Assembly: GCA_023231475.1 (NCBI GenBank)
Contig: JALJEE010001544.1
Coordinates: forward strand, 124,001-164,218
Length of the DNA stretch: 40,218 nt
Direction: 5' to 3'
Origin: Seison nebaliae
Lineage: Eukaryota
Part shown: positions 534 through 28,367 of the stretch, in pieces
How the letters are laid out: each line of letters begins with the position of its first letter
Position numbering within the stretch: the stretch's first letter is position 1
The notes under the pieces: model-generated
What the model saw: the letters and a program-made list of their open reading frames with translations, nothing else
What the model was told of the DNA's origin: nothing
Database searches by the model: none
Position numbers and translations under genes: made by a program

Positions 534-3500
534 TTATTCGACGGGAGGAGAGGTTAGGAGTTGAACAACTGTCCGACCATTTGTGTCCATGTTAACCGGT
601 ATTGTGGACGCTAAAAATAGACGAGAAAAATTAAATTAAAAATAAACTTAATTAATTAACTTTGTAGTAAATGGTCATTTGCTTCGTTGGAATTAATATC
701 TTCAAATTCTTCTTCATTTGCAGATAATCCATCAATTCCCTCATTCTCTACTTCTTTTAATTCTTGTGGAGTTGTTTTTTGAACCATTTGATTTTCGAAT
801 AATTCGTTAAGTTTCGTAGAAGTTGAAGCGACACCCCCTAATTCTTTCGACTCATCTATAGTTTTCGTCAATTCTTCTGCTTTTATTCCTCCAGCTAATG
901 GTCTTTTTATTTCTTTTTTTATTTGCTCTTGTGCTTCTACTTGTTGTACTTGTTCTTGTTCTTGTTGTTCGTGTTCTATTTGTTCTTGTTGTTCTATTTG
1001 TTCTTGTTGTTGTTTTTGTTGATCCTTTATGTTAAATTCTTCTACTTGTTCTCTCGGTAATCTTTCAGATATCTGTTGATTTTCTGTTTCATCTATTTCT
1101 TCAACTGGTTCTTCTTCTGACGACATTTCTACATCTTCCACTGGCGATATGGATTCATCTGGTAACTTAATTTCTTCCACCTTAAATTCTTCTTCTTCTT
1201 CAATTTGATCTTGTTCGTTATCTGAATTTATTTCATTCGTATCTAATGATACAGTTTTGGAAACGGTTTCTTTTTGTGGTTGCTCAGAAATTGACACACC
1301 ATCATCATAATCTGGTATATTATTCGAATTTAAATTATTCGTATATTCTCGGAATGAATTGATTGATTGTAGATCGATGTGATCCTTATATTCTTCTTCT
1401 GACATCATTCCATGATCATTGTTATCGATTGATTCTGAATTGTCACTTGGATGCATTTCTATTTCATTTGGTTTCATCGAATCATATTGTTCATTCTCCT
1501 CCTCCATTGTGTCCATCATTTCTGTAGTTTCAGGATTTCCTTCCGGTTGTTCCATTTCGGCAGTTTCTGCTGTAATAGTTGTCGTTTTTTCCGTTTTCAG
1601 TTCTTCCTTTTTCAGTTTCTTATTCAGTTGCTTCATTTTTCTCCTCAACATCTTCTTCCATTTTCTCTTTAAATTCCTTTTATTTTTTCGAAGTTTTCGT
1701 TTATTTCTCTTCTTTGAATTGACTTTGAGAATGGGCAAAATTTTGATTTGGGGATTGGGTTCTACTATTTGAATTGGCTCAGGATTCATGGCAATTGGAA
1801 CTTTTCCATTTTCCTCCACCAATTTCCATTGCGGATGTTGTCTTGGATTCGTTAACAAATCCTCCAAATTATTCACGTTTTGCTGAACAGGTTTATAAGA
1901 AAAAGTTTCTGGATTGCTTCCCAATAATTGTTGTCGATTATCAATTTTATGATATTTTATTTCTCCCAAATTGTTCGGTATTTCATTATTGAGATCTCTT
2001 TTATATTGGATGTTATTTTGGGGAATATTTTCCAATACTCGAACACCACGTTGTGGTAGAAATTGGGGATTTGTTTCACCAATATTAGCTTTAACCACCG
2101 ATTGCGAACCAGACGGTTGGAATTCCATTGGAACGATTTTTATATTCAATTTCTTCTGTTGTTCATCAGTGAAGAATTTGAGACCGGCCGTTTTTAATTT
2201 CGGATCAACAGCTATCTCCGGTTTTGGTTCCACTTGATCCTGCACCGACGGTTTTGGAGGCAACTTTTCTTCAATTTGTTTGATTGGAATACTTCGTCTT
2301 CGAGATCCATATCTTTCCCGTCGATCATTCCATCGATAATTCTGTTGTTCTTCTTCGAAAGGTGGTGGCGATTCCTCTCGTGCCATTAATTGAGTTATCT
2401 CTAAATCTTCTTGATCCGTTTCAGATTTAGCAATTGATTTGAATGATCTTTTCTCATATTTCCCGTCTTTATCCATCATTTCGATAGTCATCGTATTTTC
2501 GAAACTGATTCCATTTCTCTTCTTTAATTCTCCTAAAAATAAATTGTTAAGAATTTTAAATAAAAAATAATTATAAATTAATTTACCGTTCGATTTATAT
2601 TTGACTGTTCCATATTCATAACTTTCCTCTTGAATGACATCTAACGATTTTAAGCATGAACCCAAATTTCCTGGTAGCCAATTTCCATCAACATCACAAA
2701 CTCGTTCTGATGGTTCATCCATAATCAATCCGTTCTTGCATTGGTATGCGATAAATGATCCACTTCTGAACACTTCACCTTTATCAATAAGAGGGAAGAA
2801 GACTCGATGTTTCCTCGTTTCATATAAGTCTCTTCGAACTGGAGGAACAGTTCTACAAACCTACGATGTCCAAAAAAGAAAATTTCAATTCTAATTTATT
2901 ATCTCAATAATTCAATAGACACTACTTTTAAAGGAGGAGAAGTTGTTTTGACGAATTCCTCCATCTTATCTGCACTTGGTATATTGACGATGACATCCGA
3001 TTTCTTCGTATTCAACCGACTGGGAACCATATCTCCTTTCGGTATTGCCACTGTTTTATTCACATCCGATTTATCATAAATTAATGATCGTTTCGATTTC
3101 TTTTTACAAACTCGATTCTTTAATTCCTCCATTTGATCGTCCGATAATAATGATTGTAATTTCAACATTACTTTCTTCACACCTTCTTTACCTTTCTCTT
3201 TCAACACATCGATCAAAAGAAACCATTAAGAAATATCAGAAAACTTTTCAATTTATCCTTCTTCGATCCACCTTCCGTCGTACTTGCTGCTGTTGTTGAA
3301 CTTCCTGTACTTTCACCATCACCATCACCACCGTCTCCTTCCGTCGTACTAGAAGTTGATGGTTCAGCTGCTCTTTGTTCCGCTTTCTTATTCTCCCCTA
3401 AAAAATAATTGTTAAAATATAAATATTTAAATAAATTGAACCTCCATCAGCTAATTTTCTCCAATACAACACCGAATGTTTACGATCACACACGTCCCAT

Positions 3501-3755
3501 GCACGATCTTTATCGAAATTATCAGTCAAAGAACACCAAACGTCATCGGCAGTTTTCTGATATGCCAATTTGTTTGCATCAAATGGAATACATTTTCTAT
3601 ATTTTTTCCCTTCGAACTTAAAAGGAAATACACAATCATCCGACGGTTTCGCTATCGACACAAAAAGTAAATGAAATTACTAAAAATTCATGAAAAAAGA
3701 AACCACATTGCAATACGGTAGGTAGTGCGAAAATTAAGAAAAATAATTTCCACAT
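534..3755 (-). CDS. Secreted protein with fibronectin type II and Sushi/CCP domains and a long charged low-complexity C-terminus (7 exons)
   Basis: Signal peptide MWKLFFLIFALPTVLQC; FN2 motif CVFPFKFEGKKYRKC...WCSLTDNFDKDRAWDVC; Sushi C...FIAYQCKNG...RVCDVDGNWLPGNLGSC. Frame-restoring introns: 3652-3703, 3398-3441, 3198-3244, 2861-2925, 2533-2586, 611-660. Stop at 534-536. Confidence 0.75.
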
Positions 3756-3795
3756 TTATATTCCACTTCGCTACTCTTCATCTAACGCTATCTCT

Positions 3796-3803
3796 CTTTT
3801 ATA
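3796..3803 (-). promoter_or_regulatory. TATA box of the FN2/Sushi gene
   Basis: TATAAAAG on the minus strand about 40 nt upstream of the ATG at 3755. Confidence 0.4.
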
Positions 3804-3981
3804 TCACCAATTCAATTGTCAATGAACTTAAGTTATTTCATAAAAATAAAATTACTTCTCTCAAATGTCATCAATTTTCTTTCAATTCTCACGTATTATG
3901 ATGAAAGTTTTTATAATTTTATGACTTTAAAGAAAAAGTAGAAAATTGTATTAATGTAAAAGAATTTATATAATAAAATCT

Positions 3982-6404
3982 TCATTTTTCTGGTGTCTTC
4001 TCTTCCTCCTCCTCCTCCAAACTTTCCTCTACAACATCGAGAGCAAATTCTACTTGAAATTGTTCGTTATCTTCAATTCGATCGTTACGTGAAGGATTGG
4101 GTAACAAGGGAGCACACACTTGTCGAATATATTCTAATGTTCCTGTCATTTTCTCGGAAACTGTTTCGAATTTGAAAATGTCATCAATCTCTTCAAACAA
4201 ACAATAATCAGAAAGTTCTTCATCTTTTATCAGTTCAGGCAATTTATCGGAAATTTCAAATGCCAATAATTCCCTTAAACTGGCACGACATAAATGTTTC
4301 AATTTCGGACAACGAGTATTACGAAATAAGAGAATTTTCCTGTAAAAATCGAAGTAAGTCGATGCGCATTGACTGAGACCTAAGTTGAAAATTTCATGAA
4401 CATTCTCAAATGGCATCAAATTTTCGAACGGTTCGAAATTCCATCGAACGATTTGATACAAAGTTACCAATAGAATTAAATTCACTGAATCTTCACTAAT
4501 TGTTTCGTTACAATAGAATTTCAAAAATCTTTCTGTGTTAATTTCAGCGATATTTTGAAGGAAATGAAGAATGATTCCGAAATTATTTATTCGAAGTAAC
4601 GTCCGTTCTCCCAATTGTTCGAAACGGAGTTTTATTTCATAGAATGTTTCGAGTAATAATTTCGCTCGTTCAATCATTTTCAAATCATAATTACAATCCA
4701 CTTTCGGTAGAGGTTTATGGAAAATGTTTTCAATTCGGTGAGTATGGAATGTAGTCATTTTGACGGATTTGTTACTATTTGGAATATCATCATTTCGATA
4801 ATATTTAAATTTGACAAAAATCTCTTGGAATATCCGATGAGCCATATCTCTCAACTCCTGATCACCTTCGATGATGGTGAAAATGATAAAATCGTAAAAA
4901 TCATCAAATTCACCATCTCCATCCATTACCATCATTCGCCATTGGGCTGATGGAATTAATGAGAATAAGAGTTTAATCGATGTAAATATTTCGATGTTGG
5001 AAACTAAGGGACCTCGATAATTTAATGCGCTACACATCGCCAAATTGAGAGGTGTTTTCTTAGTATTTGTCGTCGCCCAAATATTTCCACCTGCATCGAT
5101 GATTTTATTGATCGTATCATATTTCAATGTTAAAGCAGCGTAATGTAAGACGGACATACCATAAACATCAGTAGTATTAACATCAGAAAAACCTTGGAGA
5201 AGTAGATTGAGGATGGGAAGACTGGGACAATCTAATCGATAAATTATCGAATAAATTAATGGAGTTCGTTGGAATTTATCAAACGTGTTCACTTGAGCGT
5301 CATTTGATATTAGTAAATTGACAGTTTCCAATGAAGCAAACGCAGCTGCCGCATGTAATGCTGTAGTATCGTAATGTCCACCATGTTTATTAATATCGAT
5401 ATTGTAATGAGCTACAAGTGTTTTGATAATTCCGAAATGATTATTGAAAGTGGCATAATACAATGGCGTGTTAGACGCTCCGTTCATGAAATTCACATCG
5501 ATTTTAGGTATCTGAAGAAGAAAATGATCAATTTGAAAATAATCGAGTAAACTGATAAAATTGTCTGTAGTTCTTCCAATCTCTTCTCTCTCACTGTCGT
5601 TCTTAACGGTTCCCATGTACTGTCCATGTATTCGATCGTGTCCTCATCCGTCGGTAATGTGGTAGTTGCGGCAAAATCTTCCAATAATTCCGGTTTTATT
5701 CGCTTAATATAATCGTCATCTACAAACTCTTCATCGACGAACGGAAGACAATTTGCAAATTCTTTCGCTATTTCCGCATTTTTCGCAAACTGATATGGAA
5801 CGCCACCTGACAATGCTAAAGATCGTAATACTCTAAAAAAAAAGGAAATTAATTTTTCAATTTCAACAAATTCTTTATCATTTGAAATTTCTTTTACACA
5901 AATTCCATTAAATTTCCATAATTAATTAAAAATTTTCCATTAAATTATTTTTTATTTGATATTTCCCTCAATTTCTTTCCCACAAAATTGTTTTTGATTT
6001 CTTTATCGTTTTATGATTATGTTTATTAATAAGTTACTTTCGATTGTGTCAATATTACACAAGCTCAGATAATTTTTTATATTTATCATATGATGGAGAT
6101 TGGATAAAGAATTCAATTTAAATGAGAAGCACAAAATAGTGAAGATAAGTGGAGGAAACCGCATGGTAATGGATGGGGACGCCGAAAATTATATAAACGA
6201 CGTTAGTTCACTTCTCACTCAATGTAGTTAAACTAACATCTTATTGGGTTGTAATCGATATTCGTAACTTTGATGTTTCTTTTTTGTCATTCCTGCTGGT
6301 TTGGTGAAAACCATACATTTTGCCATCCCTTCTGGATTCCATAATTGGTTAATTGCCGGATGATTATTCTTCGTGTATAACGTATCGATTTGAGAACGTA
6401 TCAT
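3982..6404 (-). CDS. Ankyrin-repeat and SOCS-box protein (ASB-like); exons 6238-6404, 5553-5832, 3982-5511
   Basis: Ankyrin repeats (NTPLYYA, TTALHAAA, RTPLIYSI, MSVLHYAA, KTPLNLA) and SOCS box CPKLKHLCRASLRELL...LP. A 41-nt intron (5512-5552) joins ORFs 5493..5813 and 3982..5616. Exon 1 (ATG 6404, GTTAGT donor, phase 2) matches the phase-2 acceptor at 5833 and is the least certain part. Confidence 0.75.
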
Positions 6405-6997
6405 TGTTTAAAATAAATGAATAAAAATTTCCTTTCAATTCATCATTCATTTGTACACTTTTATCGTTAGCCCAATATCGAAATTCAATGGGCAATGGAA
6501 GCTGGTCGACGAGCAGAAGCTCATTACAAAGTTCTTTTTCTATTCTACTATTTTATTTCATATCCTCTCCTCAGTTGTTAGAACGATGTGGTGGAAAGAA
6601 TTTAAATCTGACAATGTATGACGATCAAATTTATCAGAAATTTCGTGAGGATTTCCCCGATTTTCACGTCAAGAACATTGACGAGAAAGAATTAAAATCA
6701 GCTGCTGCCAAAGAAGTTTCTTTCTATTTTGTTAGAAGAAATTTTTAAATTTTCAAATTTTTAGAAATGGAGAGAGTTTTGTATGGAATTCAAGGAAATG
6801 AAAGATTATAATGTGGGGACATTGATTAGATTATCGTGTGAGAAAGATTATTCACCGGATAATTCCATCATAGGTTAATTAATCTTCTACATTTTTAGAA
6901 ATATTTTCTTCATTCTACAGTTGTCCGAATACAATTTTTAGCGATCGAAATTGCAAGAAATCGAGAAGGAATTAATCTTCCATTATTAAAAGAATAA
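6163..6997 (+). CDS. PBDC1: Polysaccharide biosynthesis domain-containing protein 1 (5 exons)
   Basis: Spliced protein AENYIND|PNIEIQWAMEA...LTMYDDQIYQKFREDF...ELKSAAAKE|KWREFC...GTLIRL...RIQFLAIEIARNREG matches PBDC1 motifs. Introns 6202-6470, 6531-6574, 6716-6764, 6874-6920. Confidence 0.92.
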
Positions 6998-8670
6998 ACA
7001 TTTTTATTTTTCATAAAAATTGTTATTTAATAAATTTTTTAAAATTCCTGATCATAAGAAATTCTAATTATATAACAAAATGTAAATTACAAGAAAAGGA
7101 TAATAAGAAAATTTAAAATAAAAATTGTGAAAAATTCAAAATTAGGAAAAACTTTAAAAAAACTGGTTGATGATAGAATGAATATGATATTATTAAGATT
7201 TTCGTGGAATTAAATGGTTTGATTCCATTGAGATGTTTGATGAATCATTAAGTTGAAGATGATTTGACAAACATTGGGATGATGTACATGACGATGATAA
7301 TGTTTTAGTGAACTTAAATGGATTATTGATGATATTCGGATAAAAGTGAATGGAATTGTCATGTGAGAAGGAGAAATGGAGATTGTTGATATATGAATAG
7401 TTGTCTATTTGCAGTTTCTCGCAATCAGTTATCGCAAAGCAATTAGTCAATTTAGTCAATTAACTCAAACTCGATTATTTCATTAATAATTGAATGGATC
7501 TATCTAGAGATAGATGGTAGTACTATTAAGAAATTAGGTGTGTGTGTGTGGGGCAGGCAAATTGATTAGATGTAATGAAAATGGGATTATATTTTGATTG
7601 TTTGCACGGTGGGACGGCATGAATGGAATAAAAAGAAAGATTTTATTCGTTGAAATAACATGAGAGATGATTGATTCTTCGAGAGAATTTACAGTTTTCC
7701 TTATGAATTGTTTATCTTCTTCGGTTTAGTCTAAAATTAGTCGTAGTAACTTGGCTGTTTGGAGCGATATTGTTTGCTTAACTAATTCAGCAATGGCAGA
7801 TGATGAAAAAGGAATGACGAAGTAAGCGCAAGTGAATGAGTTTATTCACATAAGTTAACTGTAAATTGAAGAGTGACGAAACATTCGATCACAGATGAAA
7901 TAATGATGTTGATAATTAATGTGACAAATTCTACGGCAATTTCTATCTTTCTTCGTCTTTTCATTTATGATTTCGGGAGAAGAATTCTCCTAATGATTAA
8001 ATTGGATGGAATGAAACGAGCCGACATTCATGTCAATTCGTCTCAACCATCGAGAAGTTCATATAAATTCGTTTTATATCGTAAATTGAAGTCACTCGCT
8101 AGTTAAACTTTACTTTCACAAAAAATTAATGTTAGGTTAAGAAATCGTTTTTACGGTTTCCGTTTCTCTTCACAAACTGTACATAGTATCATTAGAATAA
8201 GGGTGGAAAATAAGATAATTCGAAATGTGGAAATATGATGGTACCGGTGCAGGTTATTGTTAGTGGAAAGTTGTTTAGAAGAATGGACTAGACTAATTAA
8301 CTACTAATACGATTACAAAGGAATAATAATATAGTGGAGTGAAGGAGGGAGATGAAGAGGCCAGAAGAAGAGAATAAGAGTTCAATCACAGCATGTGGTG
8401 GATGTTTGGATAATAGATATATGGATATGTCATCAAATGTTCGAAAGAGATATGCGCGATTAGCATGATTGACATCAGTCGGAGAAGTTGATACAGCGCT
8501 CACTTCTATTGTCTCAAGCGAACAATTGTGTACAAAAGGTGAGATGGTTGTGAGTCGAGAGAGGCAAACAATTATGATTGTGTATTACCAGAAGAGAATG
8601 TTGATTGTTTTCACACTTCTACTCCCTCCTCCTCACCACAAAGCCCAACTGAAGTGAGATCGTTGAGCCG

Positions 8671-8723: not shown

Positions 8724-8834
8724 ATTCCTCCCATTTCTCAACCATTCACTTCTCATTTTATTCTAATTCTATTTCCAATACAGATTCATATAATCTTTTT
8801 CATCTTTCTACTTAGTCCTGATAATCCACTAAAA

Positions 8835-10453
8835 ATGATTACGGAAAATTTCAATTTGAATGATATTATTCTCCAACAAAACCGTTCAAATCTCATGCAG
8901 CAATCGCGTCGTGGTAGATACAACGGAAGTCATCATGTCAAAAGTCGATCGAATAACTTACTAAAAGAAATTTCACTTTGTCTCGTTTGCGGCGATCGTG
9001 CTAGTGGCAAACATTATGGTGTGATGAGTTGTGACGGTTGTCGAGGATTCTTCAAACGTTCAGTAAGGTTAAAAGATTTTGAAGTTAAAATATATTCATA
9101 ATTAATTCTTTATTTAGACGAAGTGTTGATTATGAATGTAAAGAGAATAATCAATGTATTGTCGATGTTAGTCGTCGGAATCAATGTCAAGCGTGTCGTT
9201 ACAGGAAATGTCTCTCCGTCTCTATGAATAAAGATGGTTAATTTTTAAGAATTTTTTTTAAATTTCAAATTATTTTTTAGCTGTTCAACATGAACGTTTA
9301 CCCAAAACATCATCGAATACCACAAATTCCAATAGTAACGGTAAAAAAAAGACGAAAACGGAAATTATTAATAATGCTGATCATTATCGACAACAATTAT
9401 TGAAAGAACAATTGAAGAATACTCAGTCGTTACAACAACATTATTTGAATGGAGTTGGACATCCCATGATGTATAATTCTTTCGAAGTTAATCAACGAAT
9501 AAAAAAGTTGGGGAATGTTCCACCGCCGTCATATTCGTCGACGCCGCAAAAGAACGAACCAATGAAATCGATTGATAATCAATCGGAAATGAAGAAAGAA
9601 GATGTTTTGAAATATCTGAAGAATATCGTGCTCTTGAAAGCTTTCATTAATCAGAATCGTTCCAGCGAAGAATCGAATGGTGAAGATGATGATCAAAAAC
9701 CATCAATTTCACCATCATCCGACGAAAACTCCACGAATTCACCTCCAATCAATAATAAATCATTCAATATCGATTCTTTAGTATCGATGAAAAATAAAAA
9801 TAAAAAACGACGTCATTCATCCAACTTATCCTCATCCAGTTCCATTTCATCTACTTCGAGTGAAGAAGGATCGAAACGAATGAAAATCATCACACAATTT
9901 AATTCCAACATATCCAACGACGTCCCAAAACTTGACTCAATTGATGTAAACGGTTATTTTCCAGAATTATCTTTTTTTATTCTATAATTTTTTCTTTCAA
10001 ATTTTTAGATAGTGGAATTCAAACGGAAATTAAACGTTCGATCAATTCTCATTCATATCAGATATTTCTCCACGAAATCTTAAGTGAAATTAACGACAAC
10101 TATCAAATTCCAATTTCACCTACAGAAATTTCAATAAAAATACAGAATCTTCTACATGTCATTTATCAAACGAAATCGTCTGAATTACTTTCATCATCAA
10201 ACGAAAAAATTAATCTCCTATCACAACTCGTTCGAGAACAGAATGATCAAAATCAATTTTTGAGAAACTTATCGATCATTCTAATTATTTCCAATATTCA
10301 AATTGGTTAGTTTCTATCATTGTTATTAGAAATTTTAAATTTAATTTTCTTTCAGAAGATCAATTGAAAAAGAGAATTCTACAAGATTTGTGCGAGAAGA
10401 ATAACGGACATCTTCCCCTCTATCTTCAATCACTCTGCATTCTCCAATGTTGA
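8835..10453 (+). CDS. NR2E-family nuclear receptor, NR2E6/PNR-like DNA-binding domain, divergent C-terminus (5 exons)
   Basis: C4 zinc fingers [61 protein letters not shown] and T-box D|AVQHER. P-box CDGCRG is, as I recall, typical of NR2E6. Introns 9068-9117, 9237-9280, 9953-10008, 10306-10355. TGA at 10451-10453. Confidence 0.85.
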
Positions 10454-10540: not shown

Positions 10541-12541
10541 TCAATTCCGTCTCTTCCTTCGTTTATACATGGCCAGAGAATCATAAATTATTATTTGGAG
10601 ATCTTCTCCGGAAATATCTTTAAAGTTCTGAAGGAATTGTAAAGATCAAATATGAAAATGGAAAATTGTGGAACTTGGAGAGACTTCAAGTTATTAGCAA
10701 AGTCATTTTCTTTCAATTCTTTTCCACGATGTCTACGAAGATAATGAAGAAGTATTATTAGAACATAATATTAACTTGATCATTCCAACACATAAACAAA
10801 TGAGTAATTGTCGAAGTTGATTGTTGGGTATAAATGCAAATAATAAATCCCAAATCCTTAAGATTTCAGGTAGATTAAATTCTTGTGCTCCCAATAAAAG
10901 TATCCATCGGAATGCGAAAAATTGCGATTTCAACATTTGTGTCGATAGGATGTTGGAAAGTTCATGTTGTTCTTCGAATAAAATCTGTTCCATTTCAGTC
11001 ATACTACTACGAATACCACCACAGACATTATCCATATTCTCGTCGAAGTTCTCTCGAATAATCGTCATGAGTTTGACAAAACACCAAAACGAATCTGGTT
11101 CAGCGAACTCTTTTTCTCATAAAAGAATTTTGTTAAATTCGAATGAAAAAAAACTTTTAGAATCTTTGTCTTTCGATGTCGCCATGACGTAATAGATCGG
11201 TCCTAAAATTTCATTCATTCCCTTGAAGAAATTCCAATTTAATTTTCTTAACAAAATTTCGAACAAACTAAACTTGAACATATCCGGTATGTAGAGACGA
11301 ATAAATGAAAAGAATTCTCTCAACCACTTCCCAATGTGCCTCATCTCCATTCATAAAACGACAATAATCGATATCGTCATCCAAATCGTTCGAATTCTGA
11401 TTTGGAATGAAATTATTCTAAAACATTTGTTGAGTTTTGAAAAAAGTTGTAAAAAAAATTTTTGAGTTTCCAAAAGTTCGCCAAAAATTATTTTCAGTTT
11501 TAAAATAATTGCCAAAATTTGGTTTGAATTTGTAAAAAATTTTTAAAATTATTTTTGATTTTTTAAAAAAATTCCAAAATTTTTTTTTGAGTTTTGAAAA
11601 AATAAGAAAAAAATTTCAAGTTTTGAATAAATTGAAGAAAAAATTCGGGAACTTTTAATAATCCTGAACGGTCTCGTTTCCTTTCGATCGTTTCAGCTTT
11701 ACCGGCTGCTATTCTCCCACTTAACTGAATGAGATGAGTGGAAATGTTCTCATCTGGATAAATGTCGTCCAAGAGAACTGTCAACGGGAATTCTGTTTGT
11801 TTCTGGAAGAAGGAGAACTCTGGAAATAATCGTCTGGTATCGATATCGATTTGTTGAAGAGTTTGATTGTCATCGAAATATTTGTTCCATTTACTCGTTG
11901 GTTGATTATTGAGTGGCTGGAATGAAGGAATGAAGAAGAATAATGTAACAAGGAGAACATGATCAGTTTTATGTTGATAAACATCGGAAATTTTTAAAGT
12001 TTCTTTTGCAAAATCGAAATATAATTTTCTTTTTCGATTTAATGTTTCTTCCCATTTGTCATGTTCGATGGGTAATAATCCGAAGAGTAACTGACAAATA
12101 ATTGTGAGAATAAAACAAATTGGAATTTAATTGATGAAAACTTTCCAAATGTAATGACGTTGATCCATTTCGTCGTTACATCCTTAAAAAGTTTTAAAGA
12201 ATTTTCTTTAGTTTATTTAACTTCAATTTAAAAAAAAGTTTACCTGCGATGGAATATTGTTGAACTTTCTCTAAATCGATTTGATTGTCTTCCTTCACTA
12301 ATTCTTCACATTTGAGATGTTTATAAGAATAATTAATTAAATTGTCAGGAATGGAGTTCTGATGATTTTTTTCGTGATTTGATGAAAAAGATGTGGATCG
12401 ATTAGGACGTCGATTTTTTTTGGAGGAGGAGATGTTGGTAGAGGAAGAGATGGAAATGGAATGGACGAAAGGAATATGTTGACGATAAATTTTTTTTGTT
12501 CGATCGGACAACGTATTCAATTTCGATTCAATCTTCTTCAT
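10541..12541 (-). CDS. TBC1D13: TBC-domain Rab GTPase-activating protein, TBC1D13-like (9 exons)
   Basis: DH|PLNNQPTSKWNKYFDDNQTLQQIDIDTRRLFPE, EAHWEVVERILFIY, GYVQ|GMNEILGPIYYV, AEPDSFWCF, FAFRWILLLGAQEFNLPEILRIWD. Introns 12183-12243, 12091-12141, 11917-11958, 11418-11652, 11222-11273, about 11110-11154, 10733-10775, 10628-10674. Confidence 0.88.
11426..11645. repeat. Degenerate ~30-bp AT-rich minisatellite inside TBC1D13 intron 4
   Basis: About 7 imperfect copies of a unit like TTTTTGAGTTTTGAAAAAA...AAAAA enlarge this intron to 235 nt. Confidence 0.6.
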
Positions 12542-14005: not shown

Positions 14006-16573
14006 ATGCCTGATTCGAAAAATGATAACGTCAGAGTTGTAGTTCGATGTCGACCGATGAATAAAATGGAATCGGAAAAACATTATCCAGAAGTTGTTTC
14101 GGTTAGTGATGATTTAAATTTGGTGAATGTTGACGATTGTTTTAAGGTGGACGAAAATAGAAATGTGATAATGGTCCAACAGAATGCTAATGGAGAATCT
14201 AATCATAAGACGTTCACTTTCGATAATACTTTCGGACCTCAATCTCAGCAATTATCAATATACAATTTGGTTGCACGACCTATCGTCGTCGATACGGTCA
14301 ATGGATATAACGGTTTATTAAAATATTATCGATAAGAACAATAACAAATATATTTATTAACAGGGACTATATTTGCTTATGGTCAAACGGGAACGGGAAA
14401 AACATTTACGATGGAAGGTGATCGTTCCAAACCGGAATTGAGAGGAATCATACCTAATTCATTCGTTCATCTGTTTAAGGAAATCGAGGCGGCTAATGAA
14501 ACTGAAAAGTTCCTTCTTCAATTTAGTTTCTCACTATTCTAACAATCTTTAAAGGTTTCTTGTGAGAGTGAGTTACTTTGAGATTTACAATGAAGAGATT
14601 CGTGATCTTTTCACAAAGAATACGAAGGCGTTAGAAATTAAAGAATCTCCAGATAAAGGAGTTTATGTGAAAGATTTGATGGAGAAAACGGCAGAACATG
14701 TGAAAGGTTTGGAGGATGTGATGCAGGAAGGAAATAAAAACCGTTAGTTTCTCATCGAATTTAAATTAGATAATCAATGAGAATAGGAAGTGTTGGACGA
14801 ACTAACATGAATGAGACTTCGTCGAGATCTCATGCGATTTTCGGAATAAAAGTCGAAAGAGGTAAATACTCGTCGGGTGAATTACAAGCGAATCGGATTG
14901 GACGATTATATCTAGTCGATTTAGCTGGTTCTGAACGTCAAACTAAAACCGGAGCTACCGGAACGAGATTGACGGAAGCGACAAAAATCAATTTGTCTCT
15001 CTCCAATTTGGGAAATGTGATTTCTGCCTTGGTTGATGGTAAATCGTCCCATATTCCATACCGAAATTCGAAATTGACAAGAATTCTACAAGATGCTCTT
15101 GGTGGCAATTCGAAAACGGTCATGGTTAGTTTATTTATTCGAAATTCTCAAAAGTCGATTTCAAATTTTAGTGTGCGAATGTGGGACCGGCAAGTTTCAA
15201 TTTAGATGAAACTATGTCAACACTTCGATATGCTCATCGTGCTAAGAGTATTCAGAATCATGCACAGATTAATGAAGATCCAAAGGACGCCTTATTGAGA
15301 AAGTATCAAGATGAAATTAAGGAATTACAGAATCAACTAGCTGGTGAGAAACCGTATTTTTTAATTTAATTATTCTAAAATTCCGTAGCGGCTGGTGGTG
15401 ATATTGGGAGTGGTGACGTCATGCAAAAATCATTTGATGATGATGATGAGAGTGATGATGGTGATGAACATGTGCACAAAGGTAAAGGAAGAAAGAAATC
15501 AAGTTAAATACATTTCGTAAATTTCAAATATTTTAGAAAAAACGATTTTTTCTAGAGAAAGCCAAACCTCTGGTGATTAAAGAAATGAAGACGGATGAAC
15601 AGAGGAAAAAGATCGAAGAGAAATTAATAGCTACTGAAAGCGACAAATCAGCCGTTGCAGTAAAATTGAGAGAGAAAGAAAAAGCTATCCAAAAAGCGAA
15701 GTTCCTTCTATTTATCAGCCATTCCCATTCATTCCAATTCATTCCGATTAAGGTCGAAGTTGGATAATAGACAAAAATTATTGTCTCAACTCTTCATTGA
15801 TGGAGGTAGGAAATTGATGAAGAAGGAGAAGGAACAAGCGAAATTGATTGAGGAGAAGAATGAACAATTGGCGAGATTTCGTGGTCGTCAAGAGAAGTTG
15901 AAAGAAGAATTGAAAAAAAAAGAAGTTTTCTTCGCATACGAAATAAATGTGAATTAATTTAAAATTTTAGGAAGAAAAAAAAACAGCAACAAAAAAATTT
16001 TCTTCAGTTCGTGAAAAAATCGAAGAGAAGAAACAACGTGCAAAAACGTTGTATAATCAATATAAAGAATTGAAAGACCAGTATGAGGATTTGAAGAAAG
16101 ACCATGATAGAGAACGCGATGATTTGAGAGATTCTTTAACGTTAACAATCTATCAATTCTATCGATTTCAACTTTAATTTCTAGACAAATTCTGAAGGAT
16201 ATCGGTCAAAAGAAATTATTAATCGATACATATATTCCGACGGAATATCAGGATAGTATAATCGAACGAAGTTCATATCATGAAGAATCAGGCGAATGGC
16301 AAATAAAGTATATCGCTTATACAGGTGCTCAATTTAATTCGAATAATTTCAAATAAAATTTAAATTATTTTTCTAGGCAAAAATTATAAAGAAGTTGAAA
16401 ATGAAACTACATCGAAGGAACAAGACGAAGGATTTCACGATTGGTCAGGATTGTATCATACGTACGTGGATTCAAATAAAAAGAATGAAGAGTTTCTCGG
16501 TGCTATTCTAGCTAAACCATCAAACGGTTCATCGAACGACTCAAATACTGAAGATTCAAATGAATATTATTAA
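14006..16573 (+). CDS. KIF3A: Kinesin-2 motor subunit KIF3A (intraflagellar transport; 12 exons)
   Basis: [11 protein letters not shown]-loop [37 protein letters not shown], neck [14 protein letters not shown]3A-type tail [12 protein letters not shown]. Introns 14102-14146, 14313-14363, 14509-14554, 14743-14786, 15125-15171, 15344-15388, 15503-15555, 15701-15752, 15925-15970, 16141-16184, 16325-16376. Confidence 0.92.
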
Positions 16574-18566: not shown

Positions 18567-19565
18567 ATGCAACAATCACCTAATTCAGAAAGGAAAGCTA
18601 ACGATCACACGTTCACGGAAGAAGAATTGTGGTTATTGATTGATATAGTGTCGGATCATCCGATCGTCTGGGACGTTCGACTTGCCGAACATTCGAATCG
18701 AGAACTGAAAAATCGGGAATGGGATAAGATCGCTAAAGAACTAAATAGTTCAGTTTCAGTGAATGATATAATAAATAAAGTGAGGAATTTAAAAACTCAA
18801 TATAAGAGGGAGAGAAATAAGGAAATACAATCGTCGAAAGATGGCATAAAACGGAATGGTTGTTGGAAATATTATGAGAAAATGAAATTTCTAGAAGATG
18901 TCGTTCTCTTTCAACAATCTTCTAAATTGTTTCCTGATGAAAACAGTTCTTTCACTTCCGGTCAGAAACGACAATTGAGTCAAACAGATTTCCAATCAAA
19001 TATCTCCGAAGATGATCGAAAACGAGATCGACCTCAATTGACGTTGGAGAAGGAAAAACGGATCGAATTACTTTCGAATATTCTCGAATCAAATTATCTT
19101 TGCCAAGATGATACGACGGAGAAGAAGATCGAGAAAATTCACGAATGGAACGACGTTATCGAAAAGACGAAAATCTCAACGACACCAGAAGAAGCTCGTG
19201 AGTTTTTTTCAGAAATAATGAAAACTTTCCGATTAGAGTCTGATTTAATCAATAAAGATGAATATGATTTGTGTAATGAAATTAATGAAGTTTCTTTTTT
19301 AATTATTTTCATATTTTCCAAATATGTTTATTAGAAGAAAAAGAATCATAAAAAATATGAAGAACGATTAGCTACTTTGTCTGATATGACTGCATCTCAA
19401 GTTTTTGGAGCGTTCGTTGGAAAAATGATCGACGGTCTCCCCAAGAACAATCAAATGACACTTTGTGTCATCGTTCTCAGTATGATCAACGACGCACAAA
19501 GATTGCCAGTGGATAAACTAATTGAAAAATATGAGAAAATTCATTTGAGGAAACATCGAAAATGA
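18567..19565 (+). CDS. MADF (Myb/SANT-like) domain protein (2 exons)
   Basis: FTEEELWLLIDIVSDHPIVWD...KNREWDKIAKEL...KVRNLKTQYKRE...WKYYEKMKFL. Intron 19290-19334. Helical C-terminal module VFGAFVGKMIDGLP...VLSMINDAQ. Confidence 0.85.
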
Positions 19566-20154: not shown

Positions 20155-22290
20155 TCAACTAGTTGTGTTGATTGAAAATGGATTCTCAATAATTTTGTAA
20201 AAACTTTTGTTTCGATTCGTTCGTCTAGACGATAAGAGAGTCGTGGGTTCTCCGGACGATGTCGTTTGGTTCAATGTGATTCTGGTGAAACGAGTCTGAT
20301 TAGATGATGGTCTACGATCAGATATATGATGTTGATTGATTGGTTCTTCTTTCATTATCATCAATGAACTATTGTTGTTGGTGGGAGGATTTCTATAATG
20401 TTGTTGTTGTTGTTGCCTCCTGAGAAATGGTTCTAATGATTTTTGGATAACGGTAGAGATTTGATTTGGAAATTCTTTCAATTCTCGAACTGATTCACTT
20501 AAAAGTTTTGTTGATTCGATTCGTCTCTCATTCATTCGAATTTCTCTCATTTGTAATTCATCTAATGTTCTCAATTTCCTTTGTTCGATATCGGCAATGA
20601 TTCGAATTGAGTCGTTCATTCGTTTTTCAATTTCGCGCGTTTCATTTGCACAAATCGAATGCATATCATCCAATTTCATAAATAAGTTGACGAGTCGACT
20701 ATTGTGGAGTGAGAGGAGATCGATACAATCACCGTTATGACCACGAACTGTTGTTTTCTTATTTTCTTGTTGTCCAATTGAGAATTGTAATTGATTTCGT
20801 TGTGATGATGATGAAGTGATGGGATTATGAGATATGAAATTCTGTCGAGAATCATATTGATTCTGATGATTATTGAGATTCGGTTGAGATGAGAATTGTG
20901 AAATTTCACTCATCTGATTTGTTGATGATTGATATGAATTAGATTGATGATTCTGGAAATTAAATGACGACGATGAAGTTGATGTTATTGTTGTTGTTGT
21001 TGTTATCGATGATGCTTTCAATAAAGGAAAATCGATGGAATGATGTTGAGAGAGTTTATTCTTCTGATCATAAATCGATGAGGAGAATGTGGATGATGTT
21101 GTTAATGATAATTGATCGGATGGATGACAGAACAAATATCGATTATCAGAAATATTCATCGATTGATTTATATAATCATTTCTCATTCGATTACGATCGA
21201 TTAAATTATTTCCAATATCATTTGATCGATAAATATTCAAATCATCATTATCCTCTACTACCACATCAGATGCTGTCAAGTTGTTGAGAGTTTGTCCAGT
21301 TTGACGATAATTCTGGAAATTATTCTCAGGAATCGATGAATTAACTTGATTTTGATAATCTAATAAATTCTTTGGCATTCGTCTCTCCATCAAATTATTC
21401 GACAACATTTCAACGGAATTAGGTTGATATTTATAATGGTGCATTTGATGATCATTATTCCGATGGATTTTCACATCCTCCGTTGGTGGATAATTCATTA
21501 AATTATTGAACGATGATTTCATCAAAGAATTCTTCTCATTTTGACGTGGTCGATCGATGATATCGGATGATGTTCTGATTTTATTATTTAATGAATTTCC
21601 ATTCGATAAATTACCAGAAATCTTCTCGCTGTCGGAAGAATTGCGAAAATCGTCAGGGAACTCCAAAATATTTGAGGGTAATTTTCCATTACAGAGATTG
21701 TTGGAATTGGAATTAAAATTGAATTGAGACGTCGATGGTTGTCGATTATTAGAATAATTATCATACAAAATATCATCATCTGGATTACAATGTTTTTTCG
21801 ACGATAATGATTTATCATCATTTATCATATTCGTTCGTTTCCTCATTTCATTCATTGGTGGCAATTTTGATGGTTCTGGTAAATCGAAATTATTGAAATC
21901 ATTCGAATAATCGTCATTGGAAATGTAGTAATAGGAACTGTCATTTCCACCACCAATCATCGATGGTGGTGCCATGAGTTTATCATCAAAAAATGTTCCA
22001 CTATTCTCATCGATTACTTTCCTCCCATTCTTCAAATACATGACGTTCGTGGATGAATCGAAATTTGAATGTTTCGAATTTTTATTAAATAAATTATCTT
22101 GACGATATTGTTGTTGTTGATGATGATATAATTCAGAATTAGAATTCCGATCAAATGAATCATTTCCGTTCTTCTCATTTCCACAAATCATCGATGATGT
22201 CGATGATGTTGTTGTTGTGGTCGTTTTCGTCATTCTACATAACATTTCTGATTTTAATGATGAAATCGAATTGATTCTTGTCTTCTTCAT
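20155..22290 (-). CDS. N/Q/S-rich low-complexity protein with a C-terminal coiled coil, function unknown
   Basis: Uninterrupted 711-codon ORF with heptad-like ETREIEKRMNDSIRIIADIEQRKLRTLDELQMREIRMNERRIE. Possible GTT donors near the 3' end make the last exon uncertain. Confidence 0.65.
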   Translation of the reverse strand: MKKTRINSISSLKSEMLCRMTKTTTTTTSSTSSMICGNEKNGNDSFDRNSNSELYHHQQQQYRQDNLFNKNSKHSNFDSSTNVMYLKNGRKVIDENSGTFFDDKLMAPPSMIGGGNDSSYYYISNDDYSNDFNNFDLPEPSKLPPMNEMRKRTNMINDDKSLSSKKHCNPDDDILYDNYSNNRQPSTSQFNFNSNSNNLCNGKLPSNILEFPDDFRNSSDSEKISGNLSNGNSLNNKIRTSSDIIDRPRQNEKNSLMKSSFNNLMNYPPTEDVKIHRNNDHQMHHYKYQPNSVEMLSNNLMERRMPKNLLDYQNQVNSSIPENNFQNYRQTGQTLNNLTASDVVVEDNDDLNIYRSNDIGNNLIDRNRMRNDYINQSMNISDNRYLFCHPSDQLSLTTSSTFSSSIYDQKNKLSQHHSIDFPLLKASSITTTTTITSTSSSSFNFQNHQSNSYQSSTNQMSEISQFSSQPNLNNHQNQYDSRQNFISHNPITSSSSQRNQLQFSIGQQENKKTTVRGHNGDCIDLLSLHNSRLVNLFMKLDDMHSICANETREIEKRMNDSIRIIADIEQRKLRTLDELQMREIRMNERRIESTKLLSESVRELKEFPNQISTVIQKSLEPFLRRQQQQQHYRNPPTNNNSSLMIMKEEPINQHHISDRRPSSNQTRFTRITLNQTTSSGEPTTLLSSRRTNRNKSFYKIIENPFSINTTS

Positions 22291-22732: not shown

Positions 22733-24442
22733 TTAATATTTCTTTTTTAAAATATTTGTCCATAACCGATCCTCCTTTTTATTAACAGAATTTTCGATAA
22801 TTTCTTTTAAATGTTTTTCGTGAGTCTCCTTCAGACCCAATAATACCAAAGTTAAACTTTCTTCTTCCAAATTCGACAGAATCATTCCCACATATTTAAT
22901 TAGCACTACTTTATCATTTGAAGTTAAATACCATAAATCTGTGTTTCTAATCGATCTGGAAATAGTAATGACATGTCCGTCTGTTGGAATTCTATCGATC
23001 TTGTCTAAATTATATAATTTCCGACTATTCATCAAATAGAAGCAAGCACGTCCCAAAAATTTTTCCAAAACATTCTTCACATCGAATTGATGAATAAAAT
23101 CCGTTTTACTGACTGTTATTTTTGGTAAGGCATCAATAAAGGATTTCCATAATTTCTTGTTACATTCATCTGAAGGACGATGTTTTAACCGTGTTACAAG
23201 TTCTTGATTTCTATCATAATTCAAATTTAAATCTGCTTTAAAATTCGATACCGATAAATAGAATTGGAACGATAAAATATCATAGGAATCATTCCCAGCA
23301 ATATCGATTCCATTAAATAATTTCATATTTTCTAACTGCCAATTTGGAAGTATATTATATTTCAAATTTTTAATTTCGATCTCCATCGAATTTAATTCCC
23401 TATTCAATTTGGGCAAGTCGCTGGAAAATTTTCGAACGATATCGAAAAGATTTCCAAAGAAATTATTTGAAATCGGATTGATCTCATGAACAAATAGATA
23501 ATCGAGCCATACTAATTCTGGATAATAAGACAATTTACTAATTTGTTGTGCGAAAATGTTACGGAAGGTTTCTGGGAAATTTTCAATGAATTTTGAAGGA
23601 TGAATAATTAATTTCGATGTTTTCGTCAAATAATTTAAACGATCTCCTTGTCCTTCTTCCATCAATAAATTGAGTACTAAATGAACGACGGATATTTGAG
23701 GATAAATCATAAAAATTAAATAATCATAAGAAGTATCAGGTAATGTGGTTTGATCAGTTAACTGAATTTCTTCTTCAGCAAAAATCGATTGAGTAAATAA
23801 AATATAAGAAAGATTTCCTGAAGTAATCGATCGGAAAATATTGGAGAATATCGATAGGATTGGTCGGGTATTCGATATAAAGAAACGATTCTCTGTGTTA
23901 ATATTTTCGATGATATTCTCAGCTAATTGATCTTGTTCATAAAAATTTGGTTTTATAAAAGTTTCCTGAAGATTTAAGGACATTTTCGACGATATCGACA
24001 TACTTTCTTTCTCCGCTGAATTTAACTGATGAAGTAACAGGCAAAAAGTGGATGAACAACTTCGTTGTCCGTTACATTCGAATTGATCATAATTATTATT
24101 AAATAATTTCATCGATTTTAAAATTTCTACTCCAAGATACTCTCCCGGTAATGTGTTTGTCAACGAGAATTTTTCATTTGGTTTACGGCAAATTTTATTG
24201 ATTTTCTTCTCAATTCCATTCTGGGATTGGAGCCATCTCTGTTTGGTTAAGAGGAGGAAATGAAGGAAATAAGTGGAAGAGCGGAGCATAGTTATTATTG
24301 TTATCAAACTACATGTTCCGTGCGGGTTCTTCAAACCGATTGGTGCCACAAGTGGATCCGTTTCGGTTGTTCCATATAAATTATCAATCTTCTTTATTTG
24401 TTCATAATAACTGACATAAGAGAAAGCTGCTGATAAAACCAT
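22733..24442 (-). CDS. Intronless, highly divergent ubiquitin-specific-protease-like (peptidase C19) protein
   Basis: 569-aa ORF with Cys box GLKNPHGTC (Cys44; cf. GLxNxGNTC) and His box DGHVITISRSIRNTDLWYLTSNDKV (His490; cf. GHY...W..xDD..V). Confidence 0.6.
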   Translation of the reverse strand: MVLSAAFSYVSYYEQIKKIDNLYGTTETDPLVAPIGLKNPHGTCSLITIITMLRSSTYFLHFLLLTKQRWLQSQNGIEKKINKICRKPNEKFSLTNTLPGEYLGVEILKSMKLFNNNYDQFECNGQRSCSSTFCLLLHQLNSAEKESMSISSKMSLNLQETFIKPNFYEQDQLAENIIENINTENRFFISNTRPILSIFSNIFRSITSGNLSYILFTQSIFAEEEIQLTDQTTLPDTSYDYLIFMIYPQISVVHLVLNLLMEEGQGDRLNYLTKTSKLIIHPSKFIENFPETFRNIFAQQISKLSYYPELVWLDYLFVHEINPISNNFFGNLFDIVRKFSSDLPKLNRELNSMEIEIKNLKYNILPNWQLENMKLFNGIDIAGNDSYDILSFQFYLSVSNFKADLNLNYDRNQELVTRLKHRPSDECNKKLWKSFIDALPKITVSKTDFIHQFDVKNVLEKFLGRACFYLMNSRKLYNLDKIDRIPTDGHVITISRSIRNTDLWYLTSNDKVVLIKYVGMILSNLEEESLTLVLLGLKETHEKHLKEIIENSVNKKEDRLWTNILKKKY

Positions 24443-26424: not shown

Positions 26425-28367
26425 ATGGAATTTGGGAGAAGTGAATGGCATAGCAATTCAGCACCAACAAGTTTCGTGTTGAAAAAAGATCAACAGAAAG
26501 CGATTCATGGACAATTTATAAAGAACTTGTCGAAGAATGCGAACAAAGAGGAAGATAAGAAGAAATGTCATTATCATCAAACGTTTTTTTCAATTTCTCC
26601 ATTTAGTTATTGATTTCTTTTTAAAGATCGAACGGATCGAAAACCGGTTTAGATCTGATAAAGAGTCAGTTGCAATTGATAATCGAATCTGGTTTATTTA
26701 GTGACCGGACGGCATTAAATTTGACTGAAAAATGTACGAAATTGGATCGGTTATGTAACACGTTAAGTGTGAACGACAAATCGAATTTGGAATATCAGAC
26801 GACTTGTAGTCATTTGGGAGAAGCGATGGATATTTTGAAAGAATATGTCGAACAAACGAGAAATAAAGAGAGTCAGTTCGATCATATTGCTTTGGAGGAG
26901 AATAAAAAGTTTAGTGTCCTTCTGGAAAAGGTGTCGGATTCGTTGGAGAATTTATTTCAACGAATGAACATTCCCAACGACAATCAAGACAATTATACGA
27001 TATCGAATATTATGGATAACGCATTGTTGCAACCCGCTCACAATATCAGATCGACGACAACTCATCGAAATTCGAAGAATTCGTCGCAGAAAATCGAAGA
27101 TTTAATTGGATCCATCGAAAAGTTCCATTCAGACACATATCGTCTATCGAATCATAAACCAGACTTATCGATCTATTCTCTCATAACCATGTCCATGTTC
27201 CTGAGTAAAAAAGACAAGATGACGTTACATGATATTTATTCTTGGATTATGACCAATTTTGGTTATTATCATACTAAAGATAAATGGAAAGTTATTTGAA
27301 ATTTTATATTATATTAATCAATTTAAATTATATTAATTTTTTAGAATTCTGTCCGTCATAATTTGTCGATGTCGAGTGAATTCCAGAAGGTTCCTCGTCC
27401 AAAAGACGAACCAGGTAAAGGAGGTTATTGGAAATTGGACGAGAAATTCCATCTGGCATTATTAAATAAAGGTCTCGAACGTTATATCTTCCAAAGTGAA
27501 GAATATTCTTTTCTGAGAATGAAGAAAGATTTTATTGAACATTCTCTTTTGAATAATAACGAGAATAATCAGAAAGAAGTGGATTGTGATGTGTCGGTAT
27601 GTTGTGAAGAGAACAATATGGAAATAAAAAATAATGATAACAACTTACTCAATTTTCCAAGTCAGAAACGAACAGGAATGGTAAAACGATTGAAACCGAA
27701 ATCGAAATGTTTTCTTCAATATCAGAATTATTATCCGAATAATGTCGGAACGAAATCATTTTCATATTCAGAAGATTCACGTTGGGAACCGGAAGACAGT
27801 GAGAATTATATGAAATATAATTCTCAGTCTAATTGTTCACAATTCGACAATTCGTCATCATTCCAAAATCATCAATTCAATCAGACTCATTCCTCCAGTT
27901 TATTGGCACCTCCATGCTGTACATCAAATCAATTCCGGTTCCATTCGAATGATGAACATGTGGATTACAATTCCTCGACGCCGACTTGGAATTCGGAGAT
28001 GCAACCAAGAAATTATCATCAAAATGAGATGATGAATAGAAATGAAGATAATTTGATGGGAAATCAAATGACTCATTATAATCCAATTTGTCTGGAATCG
28101 CCAGTTTCCGATAATGATCGATATGTGTTTCAGGAAAATGAGGAATTGAGAGTAACTGGCCAGAGTTATCCAATCATCGAACAATCTACTTTGACACCGA
28201 ATAACAGGCAATCATACTCATCTTATGAACCATATAACAATCCAAATGATGATTTACTAATAAATGACGATTTAAATGGAAATGATCCAAATATCGCCAA
28301 TTATCAATCAGATAGTCTTCCTCCGGTCACTTGGTTCAACAGGTGTCAGAAAGAAGTTAAATTATAA
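26425..28367 (+). CDS. FoxJ1: Forkhead transcription factor, FoxJ1-like; exons 26425-26582, 26627-27290, 27345-28367
   Basis: [39 protein letters not shown]...[34 protein letters not shown]. The [15 protein letters not shown] wing is FoxJ-type. Introns of 44 and 54 nt restore the frame. Confidence 0.75.

Follow-up and report, generated by a model that had tools for sequence, protein, structure and literature searches.

Two protein-coding genes on opposite strands of the Seison nebaliae genome, with their 5' ends toward each other, probably each start inside the first intron of the partner. Seison nebaliae is a marine rotifer relative. The window, i.e., the whole stretch of 40,218 nucleotides that was analysed, carries a PBDC1 gene on its plus strand and an ankyrin/SOCS-like gene on its minus strand, and a 167-nt minus-strand frame at 6404-6238, inside PBDC1 intron 1, is likely the first coding exon of the ankyrin gene. 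This interleaved gene model had been put forward in the original prediction and was the best-scoring reading in our analysis. Its PBDC1 half was established by homology, and we infer the predicted splice from 6237 to 5833 from statistics. One argument of the prediction, that the ankyrin acceptor at 5833 was otherwise an orphan, turned out to be wrong, and the public annotation of the two genes is non-overlapping.

Gene model of the window

A both-strand gene model was self-trained on the window with 5800-6480 left out, the training material being only 40 kb of self-predicted genes. In the re-seeded models, both genes were left out of the training and either a flat seed or a canonical GTRAGT seed was used. 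The model contained 73 introns, of which 63 were 38-70 nt long. T was found at +3 of the donor in 56 of these 63 short introns (GTTA.. and GTTT..), where A or G would be usual, and likewise in 55 of 66 donors with the flat seed, 50 of 67 with the canonical seed, and all four PBDC1 introns of the public model. T at this position is unusual in an animal, and a literature search on such donors returned nothing relevant. Because of the predominance of T at +3 in the model introns, GTTAGT is regarded as typical of Seison donors, in contrast to GTAAAA.

The gene model and Pfam also identified a fibronectin type II domain protein (534-3755, minus strand), a C4 nuclear receptor (8816-10453, plus), a RabGAP-TBC protein (10541-12541, minus), a kinesin (14006-16573, plus), a MADF protein (18567-19565, plus), a forkhead protein (26454-28367, plus), and a translation factor GTPase of the IF-2/eIF5B-like kind (32857-35535, plus). 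Upstream of the nuclear receptor, the stretch 7350-8650 is GC-richer with a G skew, and the small exons that the model placed there are doubtful. Two long single-exon frames were observed on the minus strand in an otherwise intron-rich region: 20205-22290 (approximately 695 aa) and 22733-24442 (570 aa, no Pfam match at E 0.001).

The PBDC1 gene and its long first intron

The plus-strand gene is identical to Seison nebaliae SNEBB_003627 (141 aa). The product belongs to the PBDC1 family (Pfam PF04669; E 3e-52, 176.2 bits against a gathering cut-off of 28.5) and matches yeast YPL225W (PDB 2jyn) over the full length. Coding exon 1 (6163-6201, 13 codons) is followed by intron 1 (6202-6470, phase 0), which has a GTTAGT donor and an AG end, and the public protein and the gene model place exons 2-5 at 6471-6530, 6575-6715, 6765-6873, and 6921-6997. 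The introns between exons 2-5 are 44-49 nt. Intron 1 had been described as 269 nt long and about five times the norm; its length was indeed 269 nt, approximately 5.7 times the median of 47 nt for the model introns in the window.

An exact mapping of the public PBDC1 protein to the DNA required both exon 1 at 6163-6201 and the 269-nt intron. A family profile was made from 61 homologs (the first 61 of 112 non-self matches, with Seison left out). The profile gave 209.1 bits with exon 1 versus 194.8 bits without it, a gain of 14.3 bits; three other possible upstream exons gave 195.2-195.6 bits, a gain of less than 1 bit. None of 500 shuffled exons reached the profile score of exon 1, and its residues A7, N12, and D13 were common to 50, 55, and 44 of the 61 homologs, respectively. 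Homology thus makes PBDC1 exon 1 and the 269-nt intron firm.

The position of intron 1 may be old, as judged from sequence comparison. The same codon was preceded by an acceptor AG in three of five other eukaryote loci (L013:495, L015:27, and L020:407), two of which (L015 and L020) look near-duplicate, and the AG was absent in L006 and L007. No upstream exon was found by pattern at the intron-1 position in the five loci inspected. These inspections belonged to a metagenome scan of 25 PBDC1 loci, eight of which were examined by tblastn, and none of the 25 was near-identical to the Seison gene. A structured non-coding RNA (snoRNA or miRNA) was considered as the reason for the long intron and was ruled out by Rfam, which gave no match with E <2 in 5500-7800, and by folding, which indicated no unusually stable structure in the two long introns of the locus (z -0.30 and +0.91).

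The ankyrin gene and its acceptor at 5833

The last exon of the minus-strand gene (3982-5511) is identical to that of Seison nebaliae SNEBB_003626 (606 aa) and contains ankyrin repeats and a SOCS-box-like motif, as indicated by Pfam, the public protein, and ASB-like clusters. The ankyrin repeats are clear (Ank_2, E 4.5e-24, 85.3 bits against a cut-off of 27.3), and SOCS_box (PF07525) scored 13.6 bits (E 0.08), below the Pfam cut-off of 23.5 bits. By features, the nearest Atlas clusters were ASB/SOCS-box proteins; the 16 other matches of the last exon covered 15-34% of its length. A 41-nt intron (5552-5512) separates this exon from exon 2 (5553-5832), which is coding from its 5' end in the public protein. 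In exon 2, the 204 nt before the first in-frame ATG (5627) are open and had a coding score of 18.4 nats. No credible homolog was found for the N-terminal 93-150 residues. The two non-self matches of exon 2 were unrelated repetitive proteins, and no ortholog of this exon was found in the metagenome contigs.

As stated above, the acceptor at 5833 is not an orphan. Fourteen phase-compatible ATG..GT exons were found within approximately 1.1 kb, and the public model of SNEBB_003626 uses an 11-nt first exon (5908-5898, MEFV..., donor GTAAAA) with a 65-nt intron to 5833, which the original prediction did not list. The candidates for the first exon were compared by their scores.

A candidate first exon inside PBDC1 intron 1

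The coordinates, lengths, phases, and translations of the original prediction were all reproduced on re-derivation. The minus-strand frame at 6404-6238 starts with ATG, contains no stop over its 167 nt (55 codons and 2 nt), and ends in phase 2 before a GTTAGT donor at 6237; when it was joined to the AG at 5833, the frame continued into ankyrin exon 2. The resulting phase-2 intron (5833-6237, minus strand) would be 405 nt and would hold PBDC1 exon 1 together with the likely PBDC1 promoter, and both the arithmetic and the frame of this predicted intron hold.

The frame had a coding score of 15.9-17.1 nats, corresponding to the 72nd-75th percentile of 116 leave-one-out coding pieces and exceeding all 17 open 165-nt frames in the DNA that the model called non-coding; the other five frames over the same stretch scored -4 to -15 nats. 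When bases were shuffled and the frame was kept open, the score was reached by 0, 1, and 51 of 3000 shuffles with coding models of orders 2, 3, and 4, respectively (1.7% at order 4). Under the stricter null of first-order Markov samples, it was reached by 1.6, 1.8, and 9.2% at the same orders, the coding signal standing out less clearly. The frame is unlikely to be the shadow of a coding sequence because the opposite strand is an intron. The 55-aa peptide had no match in Pfam or Atlas.

The intronic part of the donor at 6237 scored above all 63 leave-one-out donors of the window, and on the full -3..+8 site it scored above 29 of the 63. The start has A at -3, where a purine occurs in 11 of 13 model starts; the three rival first exons described below have T or C. 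The start, coding, and donor scores summed to 24.4 nats. None of 2000 dinucleotide shuffles of the intron reached this total, nor did any of 2000 shuffles of its GC-richer core. Among 2832 off-frame ATG..GT candidates in the window, none reached it either, and the best two (22.7 and 22.2 nats) lay antisense to real genes, as shadows of their coding sequences. Among 666 candidates in stretches to which the model assigned no coding on either strand, the highest scored 13.1 nats.

After the donor at 6237, no AG occurs on the minus strand at 38-70 nt; the nearest lies 174 nt away, and 5833 was the best-scoring of the 13 minus-strand AGs downstream of the donor. Inside PBDC1 intron 1, a single AG occurs from 6228 to 6468. 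Since neither long intron has an AG at the normal 38-70 nt, both can be cut correctly. The AG scarcity lends weak support to splicing: a synonymous test gave P 0.021, yet 12 of 116 ordinary coding pieces were equally CT-poor, and the two AG-free gaps ranked 15th and 24th of 3405, such gaps being common opposite coding DNA.

Under all three seeds, the gene model joined 6404-6238 to the ankyrin acceptor at 5833. The first-exon total of this exon was +16.4 nats (+14.6 with the flat seed and +15.4 with the canonical seed). The corresponding totals were +3.6 (+3.6 and +2.3) nats for a 5-nt exon at 6164-6160, -7.5 (-4.3 and -5.8) nats for a mini-exon at 5881-5868 (MIKN..., 35-nt intron), and -10.2 (-7.7 and -8.3) nats for the public MEFV exon. 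The long exon therefore led the next single-exon rival by 11-13 nats and the two short exons adjacent to the acceptor by 19-27 nats. Being single-path, the gene model sacrificed PBDC1 exon 1 to retain the long ankyrin exon. Another interleaved path, with three exons and running through 6063-6038 to an AG at 5831, was rejected as its score was approximately 9 nats lower.

Other starts of the ankyrin gene

The strongest alternative, which we nevertheless regard as unlikely, is an ordinary divergent pair, in which the ankyrin gene starts at the short MEFV or MIKN exon beside the acceptor, the two genes share a 254-nt promoter between their ATGs, and the 167-nt frame is a product of chance or a relic. 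This arrangement is that of the public annotation and needs only near-normal introns; moreover, 5841-6080 is very AT-rich and promoter-like, and the 35-nt MIKN intron is possible since the re-seeded models contain two to four introns of 38 nt or less. However, on the full site the MEFV and MIKN donors scored below all 63 leave-one-out donors, both starts have T or C at -3, their totals fell below that of the long exon by the margins given above, and the long, GC-richer, coding-like PBDC1 intron would be left without explanation. RNA may have gone into the public SNEBB_003626 model; alternatively, its non-overlapping form may have been forced, because a single-path finder cannot output both overlapping genes. 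The long and the short ankyrin starts may also coexist as isoforms.

Whole nesting of one gene in the other would arise only if 6404-6228 were a single-exon gene of its own, encoding 58 aa within PBDC1 intron 1, with the ankyrin gene using a short first exon; in the other readings, both genes reach beyond the intron of the partner. The frame is open to a stop at 6230-6228, the start and coding scores summed to 18.5-19.1 nats, and the predicted hairpin described below could hide the donor at 6237. On the other hand, an extra gene combined with a weak ankyrin start was approximately 6 nats worse with the best short exon (the penalty for a gene being arbitrary), the top-ranked in-phase donor would lie 9 nt before the stop by chance, and no homolog was found in Pfam or Atlas. 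We thus consider a separate small gene very unlikely.

A slighter chance is given to the 5-nt exon at 6164-6160. The ATG of this exon and that of PBDC1 overlap, and the exon would be spliced over 327 nt, so that the overlap of the transcripts would be mostly 5' UTR. Its donor at 6159 is strong (above 61 of the 63 on the full site) and its total was positive under every seed; this total was still 11-13 nats under that of the long exon, and the coding-like frame would again be left without explanation.

Least probable of all, the acceptor at 5833 would be joined to a non-coding exon or a spliced leader, with translation beginning at 5627: trans-splicing of spliced leaders is reported for rotifers, and the rotifer leader listed in PMC3795323 is without ATG, but the 204 nt that precede 5627 form an open, coding-like stretch, and a search of the main text of the Seison genome paper (PMC8351084) gave no mention of trans-splicing.

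Facing donors and probable overlap of the transcripts

With 6404-6238 as the preferred ankyrin first exon, the ATGs of the two genes would lie 242 nt past each other (ATG to ATG), and only if the 6404 start is used do the transcripts overlap at their 5' ends. The coding exons 6163-6201 (plus) and 6238-6404 (minus) are 36 nt apart and share no coding bases, in line with the expected overlap of at least 240 nt without coding overlap. The stretch is no assembly artefact: 3600-7500 lies on a single contig and had no differences in four of four DNA runs (two samples and two studies; one of the runs may be the source of the window).

Ankyrin transcription would start from a promoter upstream of 6404 and PBDC1 transcription from one upstream of 6163. 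AT-rich stretches are present at 6401-6440 and 5841-6080, and they would be natural sites for the two promoters or 5' UTRs. Because the start codons would lie past each other, the polymerases would converge over no less than 242 nt in every round of transcription, irrespective of the start sites. After removal of the long introns, the spliced coding sequences would have no overlap, and pairing of the mature mRNAs would require 5' UTRs longer than approximately 66 nt for the ankyrin gene or 330 nt for PBDC1. Most likely, the two genes would share one short template in time and interfere mildly with each other's transcription, and an mRNA duplex would not be the main effect. As for the origin, the likeliest course is that the ankyrin gene acquired its first exon, specific to the lineage, within an old intron of PBDC1, and that both introns were stretched in this way.

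The two consensus 5' splice sites at 6202 (plus) and 6237 (minus) face each other 36 nt apart, and each pre-mRNA would consequently carry an antisense copy of the donor of the partner just behind its own. They lie in an inverted repeat (6198-6241, 10 of 12 matching) that is predicted to form a hairpin over the ankyrin donor on the minus strand. The 44-nt hairpin had a folding energy of -13.8 kcal/mol, a value as low being found in 27 of 10044 minus-strand 44-mers, and its z was -3.5 at 44 nt, a segment picked after the stem had been seen, -1.9 at 81 nt, and -0.7 at 101 nt. For the donor at 6237, the predicted pairing was 0.99, a value that none of the 63 window donors reached (maximum 0.97; three of 63 at 0.9 or above); pairing of the repeat on the plus strand was weaker (approximately 0.39). 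Donor pairs matching as well as these two accounted for 51 of 1953 pairs, and nothing notable appeared among the 25 of 64 pairs listed by an inverted-repeat scan. Since two facing consensus donors alone give such a stem, the hairpin can be read as a by-product, a regulator, or another source of the motif; in the last case, the inverted repeat could have given rise to GTTAGT without splicing. An obligatory interlock, in which the hairpin over the ankyrin donor and polymerase collisions in the 242-nt overlap set the balance between the long and a fallback short ankyrin first exon, would make a splice-site switch of the interleaving itself; we mention it as a doubtful idea with a small chance of being right.

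Implications and comparison with known systems

If the interleaved model is true, the public SNEBB_003626 model would be corrected by the addition of approximately 52 N-terminal residues. It would also reveal a blind spot: where first exons are interleaved, a gene finder limited to a single path has to leave out one of them, and for this reason compact animal genomes may hide more such pairs. Furthermore, the locus, 640 nt in size, would be a natural example of two protein-coding genes with obligatory convergent transcription and no mRNA complementarity, in which polymerase interference would be separable from duplex effects. No functional link between the PBDC1 and ankyrin proteins is evident.

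Nested and interleaved gene pairs were reportedly treated by Misra et al. in 2002 and by Chen and Stein in 2006. The term 'interleaved' also occurs in PMC2266709, PMC4289254, PMC5534336, and 10.1101/006650. Our literature search returned neither a paper about this locus nor one about interleaved genes of Seison; a directional mRNA library of S. nebaliae (ENA PRJEB43415) and a second lineage of the species are described in PMC8351084.

Head-to-head overlap and interleaving are known kinds of arrangement, and the Seison pair is not a new class of system. According to PMC8076222, 582 pairs of human protein-coding genes overlap head-to-head (5'), and these show no general down-regulation. The Seison pair resembles them in that protein-coding genes on opposite strands would overlap at their 5' ends, with interference, R-loops, and duplexes as candidate mechanisms. 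In the human set, the overlap depends mostly on the start site, whereas here the start codons would lie past each other and the overlap would be obligatory. For INO80E-HIRIP3, PMC11890862 describes duplex and R-loop effects, with extended 5' UTRs forming the duplexes; in contrast, the mature coding sequences of the Seison pair would not pair.

Selection against interference is reported for Drosophila nested pairs in PMC3814207. Like nested and interleaved pairs of Drosophila, the Seison genes would have exons of one gene in an opposite-strand intron of the other and no coding overlap. Unlike in nested pairs, neither Seison gene would be wholly nested; the arrangement would be reciprocal, would involve the first coding exon of each gene and no other exon, and would span 640 nt in a window with introns of approximately 47 nt. 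The human and Drosophila data cut both ways on interference versus duplex control. The ankyrin protein differs from ASB-like proteins in that its SOCS box is under the Pfam cut-off and its N-terminal residues have no credible homolog. The distinctive feature of the Seison locus would be that the first coding exons of the two genes have exchanged positions over a distance of 640 nt, in a genome whose introns are tiny.
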